A program made the translations under genes and the position numbers. Of a DNA stretch of 32,000 nucleotides, positions 10,842 to 30,396 are shown piece after piece. This DNA comes from Promethearchaeota archaeon (GTDB lineage Archaea; Asgardarchaeota; Odinarchaeia; Odinarchaeales; JBHLKK01), in assembly GCA_048939465.1 (NCBI GenBank), contig JBHLPL010000002.1, forward strand, positions 1-32,000, in the 5' to 3' direction. How positions within the stretch are numbered: position 1 is the first letter of the stretch; each line of letters begins with the position of its first letter. The notes beneath the pieces are model-generated. The model saw only the letters and a program-made list of their open reading frames with translations. It was not told where the DNA came from and did no database searches.

Positions 10842-11288
10842 ATGGAAGGGCCCAAGATAATTGACGCTTCTGATTTGGTTCTAGGAAGACTAGCGAGCGT
10901 TGTTGCAAAACGCTTACTTGCAGGCGAGAGCATCGTGATAGTTAACGCGGAAAAGGCAGTGATAACAGGCAAAAAGACAAGCATTTTGGAGAGATACAGA
11001 CAGAGATTTGGAATTAGAACTCTTACTGCGCCTTGGAGGGGACCGCTTCATTATCGAAGGCCAGACAGATTTGTGAAAAGGACTATTAGGGGTATGCTTC
11101 CCTATAAAACCCCACGAGGAAGAAAGGCCTATAAACGTCTTCTGGTACACATAGGCATTCCAGATGGAGTTGAGGACAAAATGAAAGAAACGCTCCCTCA
11201 GGCATCTATAGGGCGAACTAAGGGTAGGGGTATACGAGTTTACGAGTTGACCAGGGAATTAGGTTGGATTCCATCCGTGGAGGGGTAA
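10842..11288 (+). CDS. rpl13: 50S ribosomal protein L13 (uL13)
   Basis: [23 protein letters not shown]. Confidence 0.96.
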
Positions 11289-18403: not shown

Positions 18404-20208
18404 TTGATAAGACAACCCATTATATCGTTCTTGGGCCACATCGATGTGGGCAAAACAAGTCTCCTAGATAAGATAAGAGGAACAGTAGTTCAGCTTCGAG
18501 AGGCAGGGGGTATAATGTAGTAGCATAGACTACTCCATGCTAGACCCAGCATATCGGAGCTAGCTTCCTGCCCACTTCCGTTATAACAGCCATAGCAAAA
18601 GATCTTCTAAATCAATTCAAGATCAAAGTTACAATACCAGGATTGCTGGTTGTTGATAGCCCTGGGCATGCAGCATTTATGAACTTGAGAAGAAGAGCCG
18701 GGAGCGTCTGTGACATCGCCATTCTTGTGATTGATGTACTGGCAGGCTTTCAGCCTCAAACACACGAGTCCGTCAACATCCTGAAGGAGAGAAATACTCC
18801 GTTCCTGGTGGCGGCAAATAAGATAGATAGGGTTCCCGGATGGAAAGACAAAGAATCAACATCGTTCTTAGAATCTGTAAAGAAACAGGAAGAGTTTGTT
18901 AGGAAGAATCTTGATCAGAAAATATACGAAATCGTTGGGGCCTTTTCAACAATAGGTTTTGAATCTGAAAGATTTGACAGAGTGGGAGATTTTACTAAGA
19001 CCATCGCCATTGTGCCTACAAGTGCAAGAACTGGAGAAGGGATTGCAGAACTCCTGATGGTAATTGCAGGACTTACCCAACAATACATGATGAAACGTTT
19101 GGAGATTTCATCTGAAGGGGGCAGAGGAACAGTTTTGGAGGTCAAGGAGGAACCGGGGCTGGGAATTACCGTTGACACTGTTATCTATGATGGAGTGATC
19201 CACAAGGGAGACACCATCGTGGTAGGGAGCTTGGGTGATCCTATTGTAACTAAGATACGGGCAGTTCTGCTGCCAAAACCCCTTGATGAGATACGCGACC
19301 CCCGCGAACGATTTGATCCTGTAAAGGAAGTTCAAGCAGCTGCAGGTATCAAGATAGCAGCACCTGCTCTTGAAGGGGCTATTGCTGGAGCCCCTTTGAT
19401 TGTCGCGAACACAGAAAAGGAGATTGAAGAAGCAAAGAACGAAATATTGAGTGAGATTGAAAAGATCAGGATATCGACAGACAAAACAGGGATAATACTT
19501 AAGGCAGACACGCTAGGTTCTTTAGAAGCTATTCTAAAATACTTCCAGGATCAAGGGATTGCAGTCAGAATAGCCGACGTTGGGGATATTTCAAAAAGAG
19601 ACATAGTTGAGGCTGAAGTCGTTAAGGAACTTGATCCGCTTTCAGCGATTGTTCTTGGATTTAATGTCAAAGTACTGCCTGATGCCAAAGAGGAATCGGT
19701 TAAACATGAAATTCCGATACTCCAAAACAGGATAATTTACCGATTGTTTGAGGAATATGACAATTGGCTATTTGAGAGGAGGGAAGAGCGAAAGAGAGAA
19801 GCATTGAAGACAGCCGTAAAACCAGGAAAGGTAAAAATCATTCCAGAATATATTTTTCGGCAAAGTAAGCCCGCGATCGTCGGTGTTGATGTTCTTAGCG
19901 GGCAAATAGTCTCTCGGGTCAACTTGATAAAAGAGGATGGGAGCAGAGTAGGAACAATTCTTCAGATACAGGACAAAGGAGAAGTAATTCCTATTGCCAA
20001 GGCGGGACAAGCTGTCGCCATTTCAATCAGGGGAGCCACCGTTGGTCGACAGATAAATGAGAATGACGTTCTATATGTCGATATGCCAGAAAGAGATGTC
20101 AGACTCTTCAAAGAACGTTTCAGAGACGAACTCTCTGTGGGTGAGTTGGAAGCTTTAGATGAATTAATCGAGATAAAGAGGAAATCAGATCCTACATGGG
20201 GTGCATAA
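18404..20208 (+). CDS. infB: Translation initiation factor aIF5B (IF-2), split gene: join(18404..18514,18544..20208), 591 aa after removing a 29-nt insert
   Basis: Exon 1 [37 protein letters not shown] joins in frame to [10 protein letters not shown]...DSPGHAAF...NKID; TTG start after GGAGGATGA. Confidence 0.95.
18515..18543 (+). other. Putative bulge-helix-bulge (BHB) intron in infB, 29 nt, phase 0
   Basis: Exon helix GGG/CCC, central helix GGUA/UGCU, bulges UAA (18513-15) and AGA (18542-44), intron stem UGUAGUAG/CUACUCCA (7 of 8 pairs). Contains in-frame TAG TAG. Confidence 0.88.
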
Positions 20209-20311
20209 TCTCAGTTTCAACAACTTTAAAAAAGAAAAGGTATGTTATTAGAATCACTTGGATGTCTTGTAATGAGGATTGACTAGCGTAACAATGGAGG
20301 TAGGAAATCAG

Positions 20312-20704
20312 ATGTCAGAATTCAGATTAGTAATATCTGACCCAGAAACAGGCAAAGCTATCCAAACCCCCGTGAGAGAAGCCAAAGCCAGGGTGCTCTT
20401 AGGCAAAAAAATGGGGGAGATCGTCCCGGGAGACGCTCTGGGATTACCTGGATATGAACTCAGAATAACGGGAGGAAGTGACAAAGACGGTTTTCCCATG
20501 AGACGAGGAGTGCATGGCACTGTTCGTAAGAGAATTCTTCTAAGTAGACCACCTGCCTTTAAACCCGGTAGATCTGGCGAAAGGAGAAGGAAGACTGTTC
20601 GTGGAGACACTATTACAGACGAGACTACTCAGATAAACTTCAAGATAGTCAAAAAAGGAGCAAAGCCTGTTGAAGAGTTAATTGGGATAAAACCCGAAAC
20701 TTGA
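20312..20704 (+). CDS. rps6e: 30S ribosomal protein S6e
   Basis: ITGGSDKDGFPMR, RRRKTVRG; ATG at 20312 after GGAGGT. Confidence 0.96.
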   Translation: MSEFRLVISDPETGKAIQTPVREAKARVLLGKKMGEIVPGDALGLPGYELRITGGSDKDGFPMRRGVHGTVRKRILLSRPPAFKPGRSGERRRKTVRGDTITDETTQINFKIVKKGAKPVEELIGIKPET

Positions 20705-20738
20705 TTCAGATATAATTGATGTCAAAAGGAGACAATAA

Positions 20739-22019
20739 ATGCCTAAGGCGAAAAAAATATCTGTGCCAGAAGCTGAAAAAAAGCAGTGTGAGGTAAATGT
20801 AGGGGTTGTTGGTCACGTTGATCATGGAAAAACAACGCTAGTTCAATCGATAAGCGGGGAGTGGACAGATCGTTACAGCGAGGAAATAAAGCGAGGCATA
20901 TCCATAAAGCTGGGTTATGCCACCGCAGTTGTAGTTAAGTGTCCTAAATGCCCCCCGCCTCAATGTTATATGACCACTACCATGTCTGGTGGCACAACAT
21001 GTCCTCACTGCGGATCCGAGGTTGAGTTTCTTCGAAAGATTTCCTTTGTCGATGCCCCAGGACATGAAATACTTATGGCTACAGTAATTTCAGGCGCCTC
21101 ATTAATGGATGGGGCGATGCTTGTTATTGCCGCTAATGAAGAGTGTCCGCAGCCTCAAACACGAGAGCACCTGGCTGCTCTGCAAATCACTGGTGTGGAA
21201 AGAATTATAATAGTTCAGAATAAGATCGAGCTGATCTCAGAAAAAGAAGGAATCAATCATCACAAGCAGATAAAGGATTTTGTTAAGGGAACCATCGCAG
21301 AGAAAGCTCCAATAATCCCCACATCTGCGATATTTAAATCAAATATTGATTTGGTAGTTCAGGCTATTGAAGAATTTGTGCCAACACCGAAAAGACACGT
21401 AACCAAACCACTGCAGATGTTTACGGCACGTTCATTCGATGTAAATAAACCTGGAACTACTCCAAGAAAGCTTGTTGGGGGAGTAATTGGAGGGGCGATA
21501 GTCCAAGGAAGAGTCGAGATAGGAGAGAAAATAGAAATCAAGCCAGGAATAAGGGTCGAAAAAGAGGGGGAAACAAACTACCAACCACTTGTTACAAAGG
21601 TCGTGAGTCTCAAGGCAGGAAACGCTTCCCTGAAGGAAGCTTATCCTGGTGGACTGATTGGCATAGGCACGAAAATCGATCCATCTGTTACCAAGGCAGA
21701 CGGACTGGTTGGCAATGTAGCGGGAGCAAAAGGAACACTGCCTCCAGTACTTGACAAACTGACGTTCAAAGCACATTTAATGGAACGAGTCGTGGGATCG
21801 AAGGATCTTCTGAAAGTAAAAGACATAAAAGCAAAAGAGAGTCTGATGATTAATGTGGGAGCGGCAGCTACACGTGGGCACGTAATCAGTGTAAAGGGAG
21901 ACAGTATTGATGTGGAATTACGGAGACCGGTATGTGCAGATTCAGGGCAAAGAATGGCTGTGAGCAGACTTGTCAAAGGTAGATGGAGACTCATAGGCTG
22001 GGGGGAACTGACAGCTTAG
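20739..22019 (+). CDS. eif2g: Translation initiation factor aIF2 gamma subunit
   Basis: GHVDHGKTT, RGISIKLGYA, Zn knuckle, DAPGHE, QNKIE, RSFDVNKPG, WRLIGWG. Confidence 0.97.
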   Translation: MPKAKKISVPEAEKKQCEVNVGVVGHVDHGKTTLVQSISGEWTDRYSEEIKRGISIKLGYATAVVVKCPKCPPPQCYMTTTMSGGTTCPHCGSEVEFLRKISFVDAPGHEILMATVISGASLMDGAMLVIAANEECPQPQTREHLAALQITGVERIIIVQNKIELISEKEGINHHKQIKDFVKGTIAEKAPIIPTSAIFKSNIDLVVQAIEEFVPTPKRHVTKPLQMFTARSFDVNKPGTTPRKLVGGVIGGAIVQGRVEIGEKIEIKPGIRVEKEGETNYQPLVTKVVSLKAGNASLKEAYPGGLIGIGTKIDPSVTKADGLVGNVAGAKGTLPPVLDKLTFKAHLMERVVGSKDLLKVKDIKAKESLMINVGAAATRGHVISVKGDSIDVELRRPVCADSGQRMAVSRLVKGRWRLIGWGELTA

Positions 22020-22086
22020 AGCCTGCAGATATTTCCACGAAGAACGTTAGTCTTCGGGATCTATAAAAGACTGGAGGCGAGCAACT

Positions 22087-22512
22087 ATACTTTGTGTCTT
22101 GCTTGATACTAACTTCCTTATGATGTCAGGCCAATTTAAAATTAACATTTTTTCAGAGCTTGACCGCATTATACAAAGGAAATACGTCCCTGTGATTCTA
22201 TCCGCTACCGTCGAAGAGTTGTGGAAGCTTTTGGAAAATGAAAAACCTAAGATTCAGCAGCAAGCATCATTAGCCTTAAAAATGGTAGAGGGGTGCGAGG
22301 TGAGAAAGGCAGACCGTTTGCCTAATGAGAATGTAGATGATTTAATTGTGCGGTACGCTAAGGAAAGCAAATGCATAGTTTCCACAAACGACAGAGAACT
22401 CAGGAAAAAGCTACGGAGAAATCACATAGCGGTAATATATCTAAGGCAAAAGGCGTTTCTGGCTTTGGATGGGGATATTCCACAAAGCTTTAGAAGAGAG
22501 ACACGTTTATAA
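22087..22512 (+). CDS. PIN-domain (Fcf1/Utp24-like) ribonuclease; probable ATA start
   Basis: LDTNFL, DD, STNDRELR motifs; conserved position after eif2g. Confidence 0.88.
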   Translation: MLCVLLDTNFLMMSGQFKINIFSELDRIIQRKYVPVILSATVEELWKLLENEKPKIQQQASLALKMVEGCEVRKADRLPNENVDDLIVRYAKESKCIVSTNDRELRKKLRRNHIAVIYLRQKAFLALDGDIPQSFRRETRL

Positions 22513-22613
22513 ATAAAAACCCCAAAAATGGCTCATTTAAATCTTGATAACTCATAAAGAACTGAAATCCCCCTAATTAGCTCAATTAGATTCTTGTGAG
22601 AGTGCGTCAACGC

Positions 22614-23216
22614 ATGTATAAGTTGATGGTTGTTAGAGACACTGTTCGTATACCTCCAAGGAGATTTAGCGAACCCATAGAGGAAGTGGCGTTAGAGATA
22701 TTGCGAGAGGAGCACGAAGGAATGATGAACCCCGAATTAGGGTTCATAATAGCAGTAATTGAAGTAAAAAATACGGATGTTGGGAAGTTGGTGCCAGGAG
22801 ACGGCGCTGCATTTCACGATGTAGAATTCTCAGTCTTAGTCTTCAAACCAGACTTGCACGAAGTAATTGAAGGAGAAGTAGTAGAAGTCGTTGACTTTGG
22901 CGCCTTCGTTCGCCTTGGTCCCATAGATGGGTTATGCCACGTCAGTCAAATCACTGATGATTACATAAACTATGATTCAAAAAGGTCAGCTCTCTTGGGA
23001 AAAGAAACAGGAAGAATATTAACAATAGGCGATCGGGTTCGTGCACGAATAATTGCAATGAGTATTCGAGGAGGCGCGAGAAGCGGAAAATTAGGTCTAA
23101 CAATGCGACAGCCTTTCCTAGGAAAGTTGGAATGGATAGAGGACGATAGCAAGAAAGCAGCTGAAAAGAAGAAGGAAAAGAAGAAAGAGAAGAAAAAGGG
23201 AACCGAAAAGGCATAG
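22614..23216 (+). CDS. rpoE1: RNA polymerase subunit Rpo7 (E')
   Basis: DTVRIPP, PGDGA, GAFVRLGPIDGLCHVSQ, GLTMRQPFLGK. Confidence 0.96.
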   Translation: MYKLMVVRDTVRIPPRRFSEPIEEVALEILREEHEGMMNPELGFIIAVIEVKNTDVGKLVPGDGAAFHDVEFSVLVFKPDLHEVIEGEVVEVVDFGAFVRLGPIDGLCHVSQITDDYINYDSKRSALLGKETGRILTIGDRVRARIIAMSIRGGARSGKLGLTMRQPFLGKLEWIEDDSKKAAEKKKEKKKEKKKGTEKA

Positions 23217-23229
23217 GAAGGATGTATGG

Positions 23230-23418
23230 TTGGTTAAAGAGCGTGCATGCAGAACATGCAGGAAGATAGTATCCGGACAGCTATGTCCTCGTTGCAAGAC
23301 CTATACACTGTCTCAAGATTTTGCTGGATTAGTCATTATTCTGGATGCTGAAGGTTCACAGATTGCAGAGAAACTTAACATAATGGAGAGGGGAAAGTAC
23401 GCCTTGAAGGTTCGCTAA
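23230..23418 (+). CDS. spt4: Transcription elongation factor Spt4 (RpoE'')
   Basis: ACRTC...CPRC, GLVIILD..S.IA, GKYALKVR. Confidence 0.95.
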   Translation: MVKERACRTCRKIVSGQLCPRCKTYTLSQDFAGLVIILDAEGSQIAEKLNIMERGKYALKVR

Positions 23419-23419
23419 A

Positions 23420-23935
23420 TTGAAAGATCTGAGAATAACTCCTAAACTCCGTCGAGAATTGAAAAAGCCGCAAGGTATCTTACTAAAAGGATCTGCAGAC
23501 ACAAACATACGGATAATTGAAGAACTAGTAAAATCTTCAAAACCTCCTAAACTGGTAACGGTTGGGGATGTGGTTACAAGCAATCTTACGGACGCAAACA
23601 TATTGCCCGATCTATGCATCATAGATGGTAAGACCCTACGAGGCGGGTACAAGATCAAGCTTAAGACAAAGAAGAACATAAGATTGAAAAATCCCAAAGG
23701 AACTGTAAGCTCAGAGGCTTGGGAAGCAATTAGGAAGGCCATTTCCTCAGAAGTCAAGGTTGGGATAATAGTAGAGGGAGAAGAAGATCTGCTAACCATT
23801 CCAGCAGTCCTCTTGGCCCCGAATCGTGCTATTGTGATATATGGTCAGCCAGACATTGGAGTGGTGATCGTAAAGGTCGACGAGGAAAGCAAGAAACATT
23901 ATCGAGAGTTAGCAGAGCAAATGGAGGAAATTTAA
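23420..23935 (+). CDS. GTP-dependent dephospho-CoA kinase (DUF359)
   Basis: LKKPQG, VGDVVT, IIDGKT.R, VEGEEDLL, YGQP. Confidence 0.9.
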   Translation: MKDLRITPKLRRELKKPQGILLKGSADTNIRIIEELVKSSKPPKLVTVGDVVTSNLTDANILPDLCIIDGKTLRGGYKIKLKTKKNIRLKNPKGTVSSEAWEAIRKAISSEVKVGIIVEGEEDLLTIPAVLLAPNRAIVIYGQPDIGVVIVKVDEESKKHYRELAEQMEEI

Positions 23936-24319
23936 TTGTCCATGAAAATTGACGTTATTTCGGAGAAGAAAAATCCCTTGCTAGGAAGAAACGAGATATA
24001 TTTCGAAATCTCTCATCCGAATAAAGGAAGTCCAATGAGGAAAAACATAAGGGAAAATTTGGCCTCGAGATACAAGGTGGATCTAGATTTGGTCTTCATA
24101 CGTAGACTTATGCCGGTTGCGGGAAAGCAGAAAATTAAGGGAACTGCAAGAATCTACGAAGATAAGGATCGAGCCGGACTTGTTGAAGCTAAGCACATAG
24201 TAAGCAGAAATCAGACAGAAGTAGAAGAAAAAGAGGAAGTAGAGAAGGAGAAGCCGAAGGAGAAGCCGAAGGAGAAGCCGAAGGAGAAGCCGAAGGAGAA
24301 GCCGAAGGAGAAGGGTTAG
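23936..24319 (+). CDS. rps24e: 30S ribosomal protein S24e with repetitive charged tail
   Basis: NPLLGRNEI, G.ARIY; C-terminal (KPKE)x5. Confidence 0.93.
   Translation: MSMKIDVISEKKNPLLGRNEIYFEISHPNKGSPMRKNIRENLASRYKVDLDLVFIRRLMPVAGKQKIKGTARIYEDKDRAGLVEAKHIVSRNQTEVEEKEEVEKEKPKEKPKEKPKEKPKEKPKEKG
24251..24310 (+). repeat. Perfect 12-bp tandem repeat AAGCCGAAGGAG x5 in the rps24e 3' end
   Basis: Read directly from the sequence. Confidence 0.97.
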
Positions 24320-24352
24320 AAGAAACTTGGGGAGTAATAGGTGGTAGTTTCT

Positions 24353-24643
24353 GTAAACTACTCCTCCCTCGCAGAAGGGGCTCATGACTGTGCTTGACCG
24401 CAATTCCCTCCCGAGCTCCGGTTTCATCACAAGTCAAATCAAGGGGCGATTTGCAGCGCCCCAGCCCGGTGATCCGTGCATAGCGCCGAGCTTAAGAGTT
24501 TTCCTCGCCTATCCTCGCACGGGTCATTGACCGTTTCCGCCTCCAAGAGAGGTGTCCCTTCAGACCTATTAGTATATATAGCACAAACTCAGTTAAAGAT
24601 CCCTCAATTCCTCTCCGCCCTTTCGGACGGAGTCCCCCAGAGG
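24353..24643. mobile_element. Non-autonomous IS200/IS605-like mini-element E4 (~290 bp)
   Basis: Starts GTAAACTACTCCTCCCTCGCAGAAGGGGCT; ends AATTCCTCTCCGCCCTTTCGGACGGAGTCCCCCAGAGG (terminal hairpin). Homologous to 28455-28752. Confidence 0.7.
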
Positions 24644-24651
24644 TGGTTCCT

Positions 24652-24849
24652 ACGAGCGTCAAAGAATATTATACGGTATCAAAGGACGGAAAAATTGCTA
24701 GATTGAAGAAGAATTGTCCCAGATGCGGACTTGGCACATTCATGGCAGAGCATTCTGATCGATGGAGTTGCGGCAAGTGTGGTTGGACTGAATTCAAGAA
24801 AGGGGAGATTGAAGACCACGAAAAAGAGGAAAAACTAAATCAGTCTTAA
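24652..24849 (+). CDS. rps27ae: 30S ribosomal protein S27ae (eS31); start ACG 24652 or GTG 24643
   Basis: [22 protein letters not shown]. Confidence 0.95.
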
Positions 24850-24943
24850 TCCATAATAGATAGGATAGAATACATAATAGATAAGACGGATAGGGTATAT
24901 TTCTTTGAAAGGCTCTGACTTCTTCCGGCACAATTCTCGGGCG

Positions 24944-25543
24944 TCAAGCAGCAGCTTTGGTTACCGGCTCGGAAACTAATTTACTCTTACGCACTTCGCA
25001 TTTCCTTAACGGCATAATCTTTTTGCTTTCATTATAGATTTCAGATCCAATCTTTCCGAGCACACATTCATGTACAAATTGCTGGAAAGTCAGTTCCTTT
25101 GCCTTTCTATAAACAGTTTCTTTCATTATTTTGCGGATTCTACGCTCTTGACTGGTCTTGGCTCTATTATGCGTAAATGCTATTGTAGAGATAATTAAGC
25201 GATACCTGTCTTTGGTCATAATACTGAATCGACCGTCAATCCTGGTACTTCCTCGGCGAACTAAACTCCTGAGGTAATCCCGGGCAAAATTGTGACCTTT
25301 GAATATGGTATAAGCTGATTTATCTTTTACTTCTTTAATCTGGAAGAGAAGTTGTATGTGTCCAAGAGTCATATCGCCTGTAATATCATACAGCGTAGCC
25401 TCTACAACTCTACCTATCAGCCTGTCAGGATCGTTTGTGACGGTTTCACCTATTTCGATGTCTCCGAGATATTTAGGCGAGTATATAGTGAACCAAGATT
25501 TAGTTCTCCATGTATCCTTGACTTTGCTTCGAGACATGGTCAT
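24944..25543 (-). CDS. rps3ae: 30S ribosomal protein S3Ae (eS1)
   Basis: KDTW..K.WF, GRVVEATLYDITGD, DYLRSLVRRG, PLRKCEVRKSK. Confidence 0.96.
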   Translation of the reverse strand: MTMSRSKVKDTWRTKSWFTIYSPKYLGDIEIGETVTNDPDRLIGRVVEATLYDITGDMTLGHIQLLFQIKEVKDKSAYTIFKGHNFARDYLRSLVRRGSTRIDGRFSIMTKDRYRLIISTIAFTHNRAKTSQERRIRKIMKETVYRKAKELTFQQFVHECVLGKIGSEIYNESKKIMPLRKCEVRKSKLVSEPVTKAAA

Positions 25544-25609
25544 TCATCTCCTTAGGAATCATGGTAGACGAAAAATCAAATAAAAACCTTTCTTAAAAGT
25601 TGACTGCTT

Positions 25610-25837
25610 TTACTTAATATCTTCCACCGATTTGATGGTGGCCAATAGACTGTCAAGTGAAGTCATGACCTTATCGATGTTTTCTTCATAATGGGCGGAT
25701 ATCTCAAGTTTTCTTCCAACGCACACAACTTCTACCCTGCGATCGTTTCGATAATGATGTTGCAGGCTTTTTGTGACAGCTCTAGTCCTTTTTTCGGTTG
25801 CGCAGTCCAGCGTTAGCTTTATTTTGATTCCTTGCGT
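25610..25837 (-). CDS. pcc1: KEOPS complex subunit Pcc1 (not in ORF track; no ATG/GTG/TTG start)
   Basis: Manual translation: (T)QGIKIKLTLDCATEKRTRAVTKSLQ...RVEVVCVGRKLEISA...IDKVMTSLDSLLATIKSVEDIK*. Size, residue pattern and position between DHH and rps3ae match Pcc1. Confidence 0.7.
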   Translation of the reverse strand, partial: TQGIKIKLTLDCATEKRTRAVTKSLQHHYRNDRRVEVVCVGRKLEISAHYEENIDKVMTSLDSLLATIKSVEDIK

Positions 25838-27291
25838 TTTTCGTCCCCCATTTGCTCCCTAATAATCTTTTCCAGATGAAAAACTAATTTCTCTTCACTT
25901 CCTGCGGGGATTAAAGCACCCGCAGCAGCATCGTGTCCTCCTGCTGTGGCTTCTTTTAGTTTAATCTCCTCTATAACTTGGCTTAGAGCCAATCCAAGAT
26001 TAACACCGCTCTCAACTAGCTCTTCCCCTGCACGCAACGATACTTTTACACCTTCCGGGTCTGAATAGGCGAAGGAAACAATGACTTTGTCAGACTTCAA
26101 TATTCGTGCGTGCAAGGCAACAGATGCAACAGTGCCAATTATTCGTTCATCAACAACATTTTCGCCATGAAAGACCTGAAGAAACTCAGTTTCCTTAACG
26201 CGACCTGGCTGTGTAAGCCATTCGATATATTTTGATATTTTCTGGCGATACTCTACAAGTAATTGCTGTGCTTCCATCAGGGCATTTACTCTGTCGCCAA
26301 GACATATTGCCACACCCACCCCAGGATGTCTGATTCTACCACAGGCGTTCAGAAGAGAGGCAAATTCTCTGGCATCCCTCAAAGGCGTTCCTTTTTCCTC
26401 TCTGAGTAGAGTGTACACATTCCCAACAATACTCTCAGCCTTATCAGAATCTATACCTTGTTGCAACATGTACTGAATAAGGGCGCTATTCAGTTGGATT
26501 TTCTCATCTTGTGAGAGATCAGAGAGAGTTCTCCAATGATCGTCTTCTTTCAGTTTTATTCCAGCCTTGGACAAGAACATGAAGCATCTTTCCCCGCTAC
26601 CTGTCAAACCGGGTATGAATGGATCTGTCGTGTATTGCAGTGCAACGTGAATTGGCCTGGTTTCACGTCCAAAGATGGATAAATCCTTCTCTACTCTAAG
26701 AACCCCCGATTCCACACCATCCTTGACGATGATGTCCCCATTTATGCCAAAAAAATCTCGGTGTTCTGCTTTATCCTGTATATCACCTACAGCTCCGACG
26801 ACAGCGAGATGAGCAAGATCCCTATTCTCCTTGTTAATGCTTCTGGCCACGAGGTAGGAAACCCCAGCCCCGCTTACTTCCTGACCTCCGTTTATCCCGT
26901 ATAAATGGGGGTTTACATGAACCAATCCCGGAAAATCACCTGCGTTCCCCATCTCATGATGATCTAGTATTATTACTGAACTTTCAGAAAGATAGTCTTT
27001 AATAGAATTTAGCTGAGCAGAACCAAGATCGGAAAAAACATAGAAGGATCGGTTTTCGTCTGCTAGTTCCTTGATGATTTGTGGATTGATTTGCTTCACC
27101 ACTCGAATGTGAAAGGCCATACCAAGCCGTAATAATGTCAATCCAATTACTCCTGCCGCTGCTATTCCGTCTGCGTCATAGTGGGAAGTGATCCGAACTA
27201 TCCCTTTTTCATCCGCCCATTCTTGGAGCTTCTCCCCAGCTCTCTTGGCAAGTTTTAGAAAGCTATCAAGATCTCTACTCACCAATCTCAA
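25819..27291 (-). CDS. RecJ-like DHH phosphoesterase
   Basis: SHYDADG, SDLGS, LDHH, GAVGDIQD, LLNACGR, AGGHDAAAGA; in the rps15-DHH-pcc1-rps3ae operon. Confidence 0.92.
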   Translation of the reverse strand: MRLVSRDLDSFLKLAKRAGEKLQEWADEKGIVRITSHYDADGIAAAGVIGLTLLRLGMAFHIRVVKQINPQIIKELADENRSFYVFSDLGSAQLNSIKDYLSESSVIILDHHEMGNAGDFPGLVHVNPHLYGINGGQEVSGAGVSYLVARSINKENRDLAHLAVVGAVGDIQDKAEHRDFFGINGDIIVKDGVESGVLRVEKDLSIFGRETRPIHVALQYTTDPFIPGLTGSGERCFMFLSKAGIKLKEDDHWRTLSDLSQDEKIQLNSALIQYMLQQGIDSDKAESIVGNVYTLLREEKGTPLRDAREFASLLNACGRIRHPGVGVAICLGDRVNALMEAQQLLVEYRQKISKYIEWLTQPGRVKETEFLQVFHGENVVDERIIGTVASVALHARILKSDKVIVSFAYSDPEGVKVSLRAGEELVESGVNLGLALSQVIEEIKLKEATAGGHDAAAGALIPAGSEEKLVFHLEKIIREQMGDEKRKESK

Positions 27292-27324
27292 TCATCCGAA
27301 AATTCCTTTAAGATTCCTTAGAGC

Positions 27325-27780
27325 CTATCGTACCATCAGTACAGCCTTATCACGACTATATTTCCAATCAGAAGGAAGGATGCCCTTTTTCTTATAATAC
27401 TTGGAGAGACGATGGATCTTGCTCTCTATTAGTTGTAGCCCCCGCTTTGAGTGAAGATCTTTCGGATGTTCCTCCAGATGCCTTCTCAAGTTCACAGAAC
27501 TCTGCAACAAGTCAATAAGATCTTCAGGTAATGAAGGAAGTAATTCACGTTCTTTTAGAATCTGAGTCACTGACTTACCAGCAGCCAACTTAACTAAGGG
27601 AACCCCGTATTGATCCCTCATAATATTACCTATCATTGAGGGGGGCTCCCCCGCTTTGGCCAATTTGACTACCAGAGCCTCTACTTCATCAGCGTTTCTC
27701 ATAAACCATTCAGGAGACTTTGTTCGAGGAGGTCTGGTGGATTTTGATTTCCCTTTCCTACGGGTGTGCATCCTTGCCAT
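27325..27780 (-). CDS. rps15: 30S ribosomal protein S15 (uS15)
   Basis: [18 protein letters not shown]-like [21 protein letters not shown]. Confidence 0.97.
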
Positions 27781-27883
27781 ATTACTCCACCGCCAAAATC
27801 AAGATACTTGAGGGCTTTTAAATTTTCTGATTTATGATCTACAGCCAGTTCAGTATGTTAAAACCATTAAGAAGGCTTAAACC

Positions 27884-28447
27884 TCATCGAGCCGAGAAGT
27901 TCTTCTTTAACCAATCTGCAAACTTGTACAAAACCTTCTTTCTGTGAGAAAGTTTGTTTTTTTCATCAAAACCCATTTCAGCATAGGTTCTACCGTCACC
28001 CTCCAGCGGGACAAAAATAGGATCGTATCCCCAGAGTTTACCCCGTTCTTCTTCGGAAATTGTACCTTCTACATTGGCAGAAATGCATGTAGATACTCGA
28101 TCATGAGAGAAGGCGATAACTGACTTAAAGACTGCCTTCCTTGTTGCGACTCCCTCCATCAACCTTAGAATCCCCTTATTCCCTATAGTTTTGAAGACGT
28201 ACGAAGAGTACGGGCCAGGAAAGCCGTTAAGTGCTTCGATAAACAGCCCGGTATCTTCCACAAAAACTGGTTTTTTGATCTTTTTAGAAACTAGAGACAC
28301 ACTGTATGAGGCTATTTTCTCTAGACTTTCATGTTGAGGTTCAATCCTCTCGATATCCAGATGTTCAATCTCAAAGCCTATCTTTCCCAATATTTCAGAT
28401 GCCTCTCTTATCTTATTCTTATTACTTGTAGCAAAAAGCAGCTTCAT
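27884..28447 (-). CDS. rdgB: dITP/XTP pyrophosphatase (RdgB/Ham1)
   Basis: FATSNKNK, EDTGL, GFPGPYS, GYDPIF, KNKLSHR. Confidence 0.94.
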   Translation of the reverse strand: MKLLFATSNKNKIREASEILGKIGFEIEHLDIERIEPQHESLEKIASYSVSLVSKKIKKPVFVEDTGLFIEALNGFPGPYSSYVFKTIGNKGILRLMEGVATRKAVFKSVIAFSHDRVSTCISANVEGTISEEERGKLWGYDPIFVPLEGDGRTYAEMGFDEKNKLSHRKKVLYKFADWLKKNFSAR

Positions 28448-28454
28448 TTGATCG

Positions 28455-28752
28455 CCTCGAGGAAACTCCGACCAAAAGGACGGAGAGGGATTAAGGAGTC
28501 GATGAATGCTATTGGGACATACGCACCAATAGATTTGAAGTCACACCTCTCTTCGATGTGGAAACAGCTAATGACGGATGAGGGTGGGCGCCATGGACTG
28601 ATAGCCACTGTATCGCCTGACGCTATATGCAGATTACTGGGTTCAGACGCTTTGGACTTGCTGCCAATCTGGCCTGTGATGCGACCAAAGCCCATTTGGG
28701 AATTAAGGTCCAGCATAGTCATAAACTCCTTCACTAAGATGGAGTATTTCAT
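28455..28752. mobile_element. Non-autonomous IS200/IS605-like mini-element E5 (~298 bp), diverged copy of E4
   Basis: Minus strand shares TACTCC, ATGACT.TGCT.GACC, AATTCCC, CATCACA, AAGAGAGGTGT and the terminal hairpin CTCTCCG.CCTTT.GG.CGGAGT with E4. Confidence 0.7.
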
Positions 28753-29378
28753 CTATCTTCGATATATCGTCCACGTCTCTCGACCTCCCCTATGCGAAGT
28801 ATAGCATCCTCCGCATCCTTGCCCAAGACCTCACGATAACCAGCCAAAACTGCTTCGAAAAACTCTTCAGCGTGTTGATAGTGAGTACTTTGTAAGGCAC
28901 GCTGCATAAGGTGGAGATCCACTCCTTTATGTTCAATTTCTGATGAGTGCTCACCCAATCCAAAATCTATGAAGTATATTTGCTTTTCAGAGGTCAAGAT
29001 CATATTTGAGGTAGTTAAATCACCATGTATAAGTCCGTTCTTATGGAGACGTCCGATTGAGCGTCCTACACAGGTACAGACTCTTTTCTGTTCTTGTCTT
29101 GTAATTTCATTAATAACATTCTTAAGCTTCTGCCCATCAATGTATTCGTAAATGATGGTGGTTTTAGGAACATCTACTTGGCATATTGCCGGAGTGGAAA
29201 CCCCAGCTTTTCTAGCACTGCTGAACATCTTGGCTTCATGAATCGTCCTGTATTGCCTGATCCTTAGATCCAGTTCAGGAATTCGATATCTCTTTGCTAC
29301 CCTGCACTTCCGTACGACAACTCTGTCGTACCACTTCTCCTTAAACAAATAAGCTTCAGCACCTTTGGCCATGAGCAA
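28749..29378 (-). CDS. bud32: KEOPS kinase Bud32 (PRPK)
   Basis: KGAEA, EA, HGDLTTSN, IDFGL, VDLH, RGRY. Confidence 0.94.
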   Translation of the reverse strand: MLMAKGAEAYLFKEKWYDRVVVRKCRVAKRYRIPELDLRIRQYRTIHEAKMFSSARKAGVSTPAICQVDVPKTTIIYEYIDGQKLKNVINEITRQEQKRVCTCVGRSIGRLHKNGLIHGDLTTSNMILTSEKQIYFIDFGLGEHSSEIEHKGVDLHLMQRALQSTHYQHAEEFFEAVLAGYREVLGKDAEDAILRIGEVERRGRYIEDR

Positions 29379-29390
29379 CTTGATCCTCCC

Positions 29391-30396
29391 CTAATCTCTC
29401 CAGACAATATCAACTTCATCGAGTCGCCATTTTGGCTTTACGCTACTATTTTTTAATTTCAAAACCTGTCCATGTTTGTACTGTAACATCCCTGTCCATG
29501 CTATCATCGCTCCATTGTCCCCAGAGAATCTGTTCGAGACCACACGAAACTTTGCATTATGCTCCTTAGCAATGGATTTAAGCATCTCCTGCAGTCTTTT
29601 GTTTGCAGCTACACCTCCCGTTAATAGAACAGCAGGCTTTTCAGTGTGTGCGAGGGCACGCTCCGTAACTTCGGTCAACATTGAAAATGCAACTTCCTGT
29701 AAGCTGAAACAAAGATCTTCGATTCTGTTCTCATGAAGTTTGTTTGTTGCAGCAGTTAGGAGACCGGAATAGGATAAGTCCATACCTTTGACAGTGTAGG
29801 GTAAATCAATGAACCGCTTGCCTTTCTTTGCTAACCTTTCTATCTTGGGGCCACCTGGATGTTTGAGTCCTGCTGAACGCGCAAAAGCATCGAGCAAATT
29901 ACCTATGGGAATATCTAGGGTTTCCCCAAACACACGATACCTACCTCCGTCATAGGCCGCGACTATGGTATTGCCACCTGAAACATACAAAGTAACCGGA
30001 TCTTCCGTATTGGAAGCAAGGCGCCCTATCTCTATATGAGCGACACAGTGATTCACACCGACGAGCGGGACTTCAGTAACTAACGCCAAAGCTCGAGCAG
30101 CAACAGCAGCAGTCCTAAGACAGGGACCTTTCAGCAAACTGTTGGCAGAGTTTTAAACCGGGTCCCTGAGAGAATGCCACGAATTCAATGTCGCTCAGGC
30201 TTATCTTTGCTTCTTCTACTGCTCTTACAATAGTTTTCTCTGCAACCCGTACATGGTGTTGGGCCGCTTCTCGAGGATGGATGCCACCCGTTTCTGGTTG
30301 ATACACGCTTTCAACACTCGTAAGGATTCTTCCTTCAGGCGTTACTATGCCAACACTGAACGTGTGGGCAGTTCCCTCAATACCCAAACCCACCAC
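29391..30396 (-). CDS. kae1: tRNA t6A N6-threonylcarbamoyltransferase Kae1/TsaD, split gene: complement(join(29391..30129,30155..30396)), 326 aa after removing a 25-nt insert
   Basis: Exon 1 GIEGTAHT...GGIHPREAAQHH...AFSQGPGL joins GPCLRT...GVNHCVAHIE...LYVSGG...ETLD...GGVAAN...DNGAMI. Confidence 0.95.
30130..30154 (-). other. Putative bulge-helix-bulge (BHB) intron in kae1, 25 nt, phase 2
   Basis: Exon helix CAGGGACC/GGUCCCUG (8 bp, perfect), central helix CGGU/GCUG, bulges UUA and AAA, intron stem AAACU/AGUUU with an 8-nt loop. Confidence 0.93.

Follow-up and report, generated by a model that had tools for sequence, protein, structure and literature searches.

The pre-mRNA of cbf5 is known to carry a bulge–helix–bulge (BHB) intron in Crenarchaeota (Watanabe 2002; Yoshinari 2006; Yokobori 2009, PMC2738675), and the HVO_1309 mRNA is a substrate of the splicing endonuclease of Haloferax volcanii (Schwarz et al. 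2020, PMC7714728). A 2023 review put the number of spliced archaeal genes at two at least, with others probably awaiting discovery (PMC10485636). In Asgard archaea heavily interrupted tRNA genes have been described; introns in protein genes are not mentioned in the searched text of these reports (PMC11291895; bioRxiv 10.64898/2026.10.13.758758), and no papers on BHB introns in Asgard protein genes were found in the searchable literature, which does not cover subscription journals. Here we describe two short inserts, one in the gene of the translation factor aIF5B and the other in the gene of the tRNA-modification (t6A) enzyme Kae1, which are located in a 32,000-nt stretch of DNA from a Promethearchaeota archaeon of the Asgard class Odinarchaeia (assembly GCA_048939465.1). 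This stretch, called the window below, is the first 32 kb of contig JBHLPL010000002.1 (C69; other contigs are numbered in the same way) in a 1.96-Mb, 152-contig metagenome-assembled genome (MAG). It is highly probable that both inserts are genuine archaeal BHB introns in protein genes, spliced by the endonuclease EndA and the ligase RtcB. With others found across the genome they make up at least 13 such introns, distributed over no fewer than 11 genes.

These introns resemble the cbf5 intron in that they are short BHB introns within coding sequence, distributed patchily among relatives, with gain and loss. They differ from it by residing in other genes and in the Asgard phylum, and by occurring many times in one genome, with three or more in the AhcY gene alone. 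The cbf5 intron is cut by a hetero-oligomeric (alpha-beta)2 endonuclease and its exons are ligated, while splicing of the introns reported here is predicted from sequence. Additionally, the cbf5 motif has been described as relaxed (PMC10485636), whereas most motifs found here are canonical. In the present genome the TruB_N match of cbf5 itself (C69:39744-40085, − strand, positions 1-149) is continuous and free of stops within a 345-aa open frame. As in the case of HVO_1309, the endonuclease substrate would be an mRNA rather than a tRNA or rRNA, but HVO_1309 is a single case from a euryarchaeon with an alpha2-type enzyme, while many cases are found here, inside the coding sequences of core genes. 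The motif and the size range are the same as those of archaeal tRNA BHB introns, and presumably so are the enzymes; however, the host is an mRNA, so the excision must keep the reading frame, and H1 and half of H2 are made of codons and are maintained via synonymous covariation. A further comparison is offered by HAC1/XBP1 splicing, in which IRE1 cleaves the mRNA and RtcB or Trl1 ligates it, with RtcB joining the exons in metazoans. RtcB is also mentioned in connection with XBP1 in PMC8718801. As in the splicing proposed here, a short, frame-changing mRNA intron is excised at paired stem–loop sites by protein enzymes, independently of the spliceosome, but the endonuclease is IRE1 and not EndA/TSEN, and HAC1/XBP1 splicing serves as a stress switch by which a single mRNA is regulated. 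The present case notably extends a known kind of splicing and does not represent a new one.

To describe the inserts, the BHB motif was defined as an outer helix (H1), a 3-nt bulge, a 4-bp central helix (H2), a 3-nt bulge on the opposite strand, and an inner helix (H3), with cutting after the second base of each bulge. When random sites were put through an identical search, 4.2% of them reached a BHB score of at least 22 and 0.15% one of at least 30. The insert in aIF5B is 29 nt long (window 18515-18543, + strand) and lies in phase 0, while the one in Kae1 is 25 nt long (30130-30154, − strand) and lies in phase 2. Each breaks the reading frame of a gene that is single-copy in the genome. Both are canonical, with scores of 33 and 41, respectively, and both agree exactly with the hBHBh′ definition of two opposite 3-nt bulges separated by a 4-bp helix. 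The two inserts were found where a previous reading of the window, made from the sequence only, had placed them.

Exon 1 of aIF5B (18404-18514, + strand) has a TTG start, contains the P-loop GHIDVGKT and ends with ...REAGGI; up to the junction 26 of its 28 compared residues are identical to those of the intact orthologue in G003, a closed genome from the same order. In the unspliced frame ATG then TAG follow at 18515, that is, translation would stop after 1 codon. Exon 2 (18544-20208, + strand) reads TQHIGAS... and continues to the stop, giving 554 residues. The Pfam GTP_EFTU matches 5-27 in exon 1 and 65-185 in exon 2 flank the insert, and exon 2 also contains GTP_EFTU_D2, IF-2, and GTP_EFTU_D4. 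A motif-free protein-to-DNA alignment placed a 29-nt jump exactly at the insert, and its excision gives a protein collinear with intact orthologues, with the junction peptide REAGGI/TQHIGA (the slash marks the junction). The BHB motif (18503-18550, + strand) can be read directly from the sequence. H1 is formed by gcaggg (18503-18508) and cccagc (18545-18550) with one A.A mismatch, and H2 by GGTA (18509-18512) and TGCT (18538-18541) via the pairs G.U, G-C, U.G, and A-U. The bulges are TA/A (18513-18515) and AG/A (18542-18544), with the slash at the expected cut, and H3 (18516-18523 with 18530-18537) consists of 2 bp, a mismatch, and 5 bp.

The Kae1 gene is read from the opposite strand. Its exon 1 (30155-30396, − strand) has a GTG start and ends with ...SQGPG and the TT of a Leu codon, while exon 2 (29391-30129, − strand) supplies the A of this codon and continues with GPCLRTAAV... 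to the stop. The Pfam TsaD model coordinates adjoin across the break (11-61, then 64-264), and the excision of the intron also restores a protein collinear with intact orthologues, with the junction peptide SQGPG[L]GPCLR. The motif, likewise read directly (30121-30168, − strand), has eight perfect H1 pairs between cagggacc (30168-30161) and ggtccctg (30128-30121), an H2 of CGGT with GCTG (30160-30157 with 30135-30132), bulges TT/A (30156-30154) and AA/A (30131-30129), and an H3 of AAACT with AGTTT (30153-30149 with 30140-30136). The minimum-free-energy fold of a 71-nt stretch around it is exactly the BHB motif. The bodies of the two introns are unrelated in sequence, in agreement with the sequence-only reading, which was also correct that GG(U), from a Gly codon, is in both genes paired with a (U)GCU segment through G-U pairs. 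Other kinds of intervening sequence were ruled out. An intein is incompatible with inserts that shift the frame or carry stops, and a self-splicing group I or II intron requires a ribozyme core of hundreds of nucleotides, while the inserts in this genome are only 22-32 nt long. A search of the 32-kb window with Rfam gave no matches, and ARAGORN detected no tRNA in it.

To compare the two sites across relatives, intact orthologues were aligned to the loci of 30 relatives with a custom protein-to-DNA aligner that does not use the motif. The families are designated f1 (the genus of the window), f2 (its sister family in the same order), and f7, f8, and f15 (other families). The Kae1 intron is present at the identical codon and phase in nine genomes from three families (f1, f2, and f7), with lengths of 25, 25, 25, 28, 30, 32, 26, 14, and 14 nt, and the f2 carriers include a closed 1,418,269-bp genome. 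In the remaining 21 genomes Kae1 is uninterrupted. Pair 3 of H1 connects two Gly codons at their third positions; it occurs as A-T, T-A, C-G, or G-C, and is paired in eight of the nine genomes, while pair 6 is G-C or A-T depending on the genome. All four H2 pairs are maintained through two to three pair types each, and the H3 sequences are unrelated between genomes, yet paired in every one. These compensatory changes indicate selection on RNA structure at synonymous sites, which contradicts an explanation by assembly error or by pseudogenes. The 14-nt introns, which belong to family f7 (L167:2231-2244 and L168:2231-2244), have an H3 of 2 bp and a loop of 3 nt, and are close to the smallest size that a BHB motif allows.

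The distribution of the aIF5B intron is more scattered. At the GGI/TQ site a canonical BHB intron of 29-33 nt is found in five genomes from three families, namely three genomes of f1 (including G001 and G002), G012 (f8), and G022 (f15). Its H2 and H3 are maintained by compensatory change, with three pair types at H2 pair 3. The site is empty in f2 and in about 10 further families, and the intron is absent from at least 14 genomes. In family f7 (G011 and G021, aIF5B loci L014 and L015) a 29-nt BHB intron lies instead within the P-loop codons, at GHIDAGK/T. The comparison suggests that some introns are old, as the Kae1 position is common to three families, and that others are patchy.

To determine how many such inserts the genome contains, we used a protein-to-DNA alignment that allows jumps of 8-150 nt and does not include the BHB motif in the search. 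The queries were open frames of at least 70 aa with a strong match in the genome, of which 1,433 came from G003 and 1,136 from G017, a closed outgroup genome of which 1.2 of 2.8 Mb (~43%) was used. In-frame indels and weak segments were removed before counting, and gene identities came mainly from Pfam matches of the intact orthologues. The census yielded 13 frame-breaking inserts of 22-32 nt in 11 conserved genes. Besides the pair in the window, 11 inserts were verified. Three of them are in AhcY (C118:346-377, 32 nt; C118:482-509, 28 nt; C24:7268-7289, 22 nt), and the others are in UPF0147 (C139:1973-2003, 31 nt), PyrG (C116:17805-17835, 31 nt), a DRG-type GTPase (C113:448-471, 24 nt), GatA (C77:44560-44591, 32 nt), eS30 (C84:35681-35710, 30 nt), a radical SAM enzyme (C127:114-143, 30 nt), GcvP (C150:6525-6553, 29 nt), and aEF-2 (C68 ~10914-10944, locus L192:1476-1506, 31 nt). 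Those of the radical SAM enzyme and GcvP are present in G003 as well.

The inserts found in this motif-independent way carry the BHB motif far more often than random sites do. In 12 of the 13 the score is at least 22, and in eight of these at least 30, while the remaining frame-breaking jumps, which are mostly 8-21 nt long and come from frames that are spurious or antisense, have scores like those of random sites. The motif is canonical in 11 of the 13; the exceptions, GatA and aEF-2, are considered below. The AhcY gene is cut by the ends of contigs C118 and C24. Its two introns in C118:346-509 (− strand) add up to 60 nt, and a message retaining both is back in frame and open for 170 codons. 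In aEF-2 the Pfam GTP_EFTU segments 1-55 and 53-176 fall in different frames. G003 carries at least five to six introns of its own set. Two of its introns, that of GcvP (827298-827326, + strand) and that of Kae1 (795537-795564, − strand), are common to the window's genome, while a 34-nt intron with a BHB score of 36 (535634-535667, + strand) is absent from it. The gatA gene of G003 is also broken farther downstream, its first open frame spanning only positions 1-153 of the Amidase model.

The 13 verified introns, found among roughly 1,000 testable genes (~1%), underestimate the true number: for introns that G003 also carries, the screen could draw on just ~43% of the outgroup, and genes without orthologues are invisible to the census. 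Extrapolation gives a total of perhaps 20-30. A de novo scan, which combined BHB geometry with the joining of open frames, with and without a hexamer coding filter, gave counts similar to those expected (for example, 9 observed versus 5.8 expected for a length of 20-35 nt and the strict motif). Adjacent same-strand gene junctions pass the joining test at ~3% of positions, and because of this high background the scan is not decisive, but it shows no hidden excess of hundreds of introns. A BLAST search of junction peptides against the relative was swamped at loose settings by in-frame indels and syntenic neighbors, and only matches confirmed by alignment were kept. The sequence-only reading had expected many more introns genome-wide from the local density of two per 12 kb, and had stated that a genome with no further BHB-flanked inserts would count against it. 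Eleven more were found, so the expectation of further introns held, while the local density proved unrepresentative, as 13 verified introns in 1.96 Mb point to a total in the tens and not to the hundreds implied. Hence, the claim that this lineage has widespread introns of the tRNA type in protein genes is partly supported, in a moderated form.

The enzymes needed for splicing are encoded outside the window. The genome contains two EndA paralogues, both with N-terminal and catalytic domains; the catalytic, alpha-like one (204 aa) is on contig C90 and the beta-like one (191 aa) on C139. In two-unit EndA models, one paralogue matches the second half, which is catalytic, while the other matches the first, structural half and has weak matches to beta-subunit models. 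The presence of these two paralogues suggests an (alpha-beta)2 heterotetramer, and an (alpha-beta)2 EndA with a broad-specificity L1 loop has been reported for Asgard archaea (Kaneta et al. 2018, PMC5829648). RtcB is present in two copies, one of them on C78. The other (C31:2961-5708, − strand, loci L003 and L005) is a single open frame of 973 aa, in which ~1.4 kb divide the Pfam match into 1-57 and 45-426. The insert is in frame and resembles an intein, lodged here in the enzyme that would ligate the exons. Across the whole genome ARAGORN detected only 7 tRNA genes that are uninterrupted and 12 that carry anticodon-loop introns, and so few readable tRNAs imply that most tRNA genes must be interrupted in ways that ARAGORN cannot read. 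The genome appears to be tRNA-intron-rich, in line with the interrupted tRNA genes described for Asgard archaea.

Very probably, these observations are accounted for by BHB splicing of the ordinary archaeal type, acting on mRNAs. In the folded pre-mRNA the exon ends would pair with each other as H1, the four last paired exon bases and the intron's 3′ end would form H2, and the intron body would form the hairpin H3, resulting in two 3-nt bulges 4 bp apart. We infer that EndA, composed of the alpha-like C90 and the beta-like C139 subunits, would cut after the second base in each bulge, and that RtcB would then ligate the exons and probably circularize the intron. Full-length aIF5B and Kae1 would be obtainable only from the spliced mRNAs.

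The introns differ in their sequences and are alike in the type of site that they occupy. In the orthologue alignments they appear in unusually conserved segments, with a residual detection bias toward conserved flanks. The identity of the 16 residues flanking the junction to the orthologue lies between the 66th and 95th percentile of windows of the same protein for the 11 scorable introns, 10 of which are at or above the 83rd percentile, while two in-frame indels, detected in the same manner, are at the 1st and 8th percentile. The junctions in two paralogous GTPases, GGI/TQ of aIF5B and RG[I]TI of aEF-2, are in switch I; the aEF-2 insert at ERG[I]TI breaks the same G2/switch-I motif as that of aIF5B, at most 2 nt from the homologous position. 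Further junction motifs are GPG[L]GPC, CNFKCAH/CQN, GKTNMDEFA[M]GSS, GGVMSG[I]GKG, TP[Y]QAEISQG, and HGSLT[K]AGKV. Of 12 cases, 10 have A as the first base of the 3′ exon, and all have A or T as the first base of the intron. The rule proposed by the sequence-only reading, that the central helix is formed by a GGT codon and (U)GCU through G-U pairs, does not extend beyond aIF5B and Kae1, as ten other H2 sequences were found (TTCG, GCGA, ATCC, GGGC, CGTC, TGCG, TGAC, GCGC, CCCC, and CCAG). The longest word common to the introns is 7 nt, which is not above that in shuffled sequences. With similarity at the level of chance, nothing points to a recent copying of introns from one site to another.

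The origin of the introns could be explained in two ways. The first is that they are vertically inherited relics, which have been lost many times, and that survival and detection bias alone, not repeated site-selective gain, account for their placement in conserved motifs; we give this explanation slightly less than an even chance. It is consistent with the Kae1 intron being common to three families at the identical phase, with the lack of any similarity between introns that would indicate recent transposition, and with the fact that detection requires homology on both flanks. On the other hand, it does not readily explain why the aIF5B site is filled in f1, f8, and f15 but empty in the sister family f2 and about 10 others, why f7 has a P-loop intron in aIF5B instead, why aEF-2 and aIF5B are both broken at the G2 motif, or why in-frame indels detected in the same way sit in the least conserved windows. 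The second explanation is that ongoing site-selective gain repeatedly puts BHB introns into the most conserved, self-complementary motifs of core genes. It is only suggested by the filling of the aIF5B site in three non-sister families, by the break of the homologous G2 motif in aIF5B and aEF-2, and by the P-loop intron in aIF5B of another family, and we regard it as rather unlikely. If site-selective gain were true, archaeal relatives of eukaryotes would possess a protein-enzyme route by which introns spread through their mRNAs, and the expression of translation factors and of a tRNA-modification enzyme would depend on tRNA-splicing capacity; any such regulatory role we infer only.

Several observations weigh against the identification of the inserts as spliced BHB introns. 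The aIF5B H1 has the A.A mismatch across the window's genus, and the minimum-free-energy fold of this motif takes a slightly shifted register in its middle part. In GatA a perfect 34-nt BHB register is out of frame and was rejected, while the 32-nt register that fits the homology and is needed to stay in frame carries a G.A mismatch in H2. The aEF-2 insert is without an adjacent outer helix and retains only H3 and three H2 pairs, with one H2 mismatch, which makes it a relaxed motif. Two pattern scans of metagenome contigs for spliced or genomic copies of the junctions gave 0 matches to either form, a result that is uninformative either way, as the species is probably not represented in those records. 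Finally, the MAG is fragmented and estimated to be 91% complete and 3.8% contaminated.

Apart from their origin, it could be considered that splicing does not occur and that the inserts, retained in the mRNA, are passed over by the ribosome through bypassing, hopping, or other recoding. Known translational bypass also features short untranslated gaps with a hairpin. However, matching take-off and landing codons are absent at both junctions, and what is conserved is the two-bulge, 4-bp geometry with pairing between exons, which is the target of EndA, and not a take-off hairpin. Moreover, all three codon phases are represented among the 13 introns, and the endonuclease and ligase genes are present. 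Bypassing is therefore very improbable compared with excision by EndA and RtcB. Damage to the genes, either as frameshift pseudogenes or as assembly or sequencing errors, is less probable still and close to refuted: the fragmentation and contamination of the MAG would favor it, and gene callers would give truncated or split genes at these loci, but the same sites are broken in nine (Kae1) and five (aIF5B) independently assembled genomes, one of them closed, with insert lengths that vary, helices that show compensatory changes, a BHB motif in 12 of the 13 inserts against 4.2% of random sites, and two genes that are the sole copies of essential functions.

If the inserts are BHB introns, they have consequences for the annotation of Asgard genomes. 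Gene callers split or truncate such genes: aIF5B is left without its P-loop exon, and the first 80 residues of Kae1 are missing. Essential functions thus give the impression of being broken, which biases both the completeness estimates of Asgard MAGs and the metabolic inferences drawn from them. Endonuclease-mediated splicing has been documented for only about two archaeal mRNAs, and the set of introns from this one genome would provide many natural substrates, spanning translation factors and a multi-intron gene, and together with 14-nt mini-introns and relaxed motifs they could be used to define what an (alpha-beta)2 enzyme accepts in mRNA. The Asgard hosts offer a testable case of protein genes in pieces that would be processed by enzymes which eukaryotes still use (TSEN, RtcB), and since intron positions are common to several families, the gain and loss of introns could be reconstructed.

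Weaker candidates were also noted. Alignments pointed to a possible 14-nt intron (BHB score 22) in a gene of unassigned family (C44:2744-2757, − strand) and to one of 30-33 nt with a score of 26 in a class-III aminotransferase (C4:11883-11915, − strand), while a 27-nt gap in an amidohydrolase adjoining ahcY (C118:3264-3290, − strand) is without an in-register motif. Candidates of which only one side aligned convincingly were dropped or left undecided, namely those on C60 (83 nt), C73 (53 nt), C137 (59 and 32 nt), C46 (55 nt, V-ATPase A), C4 (77 nt), and C116 (35 and 52 nt). In the window, the gene directly downstream from aIF5B (20739-22019, + strand, 426 aa) encodes an EF-Tu-type GTPase, probably aIF2-gamma, and is uninterrupted.

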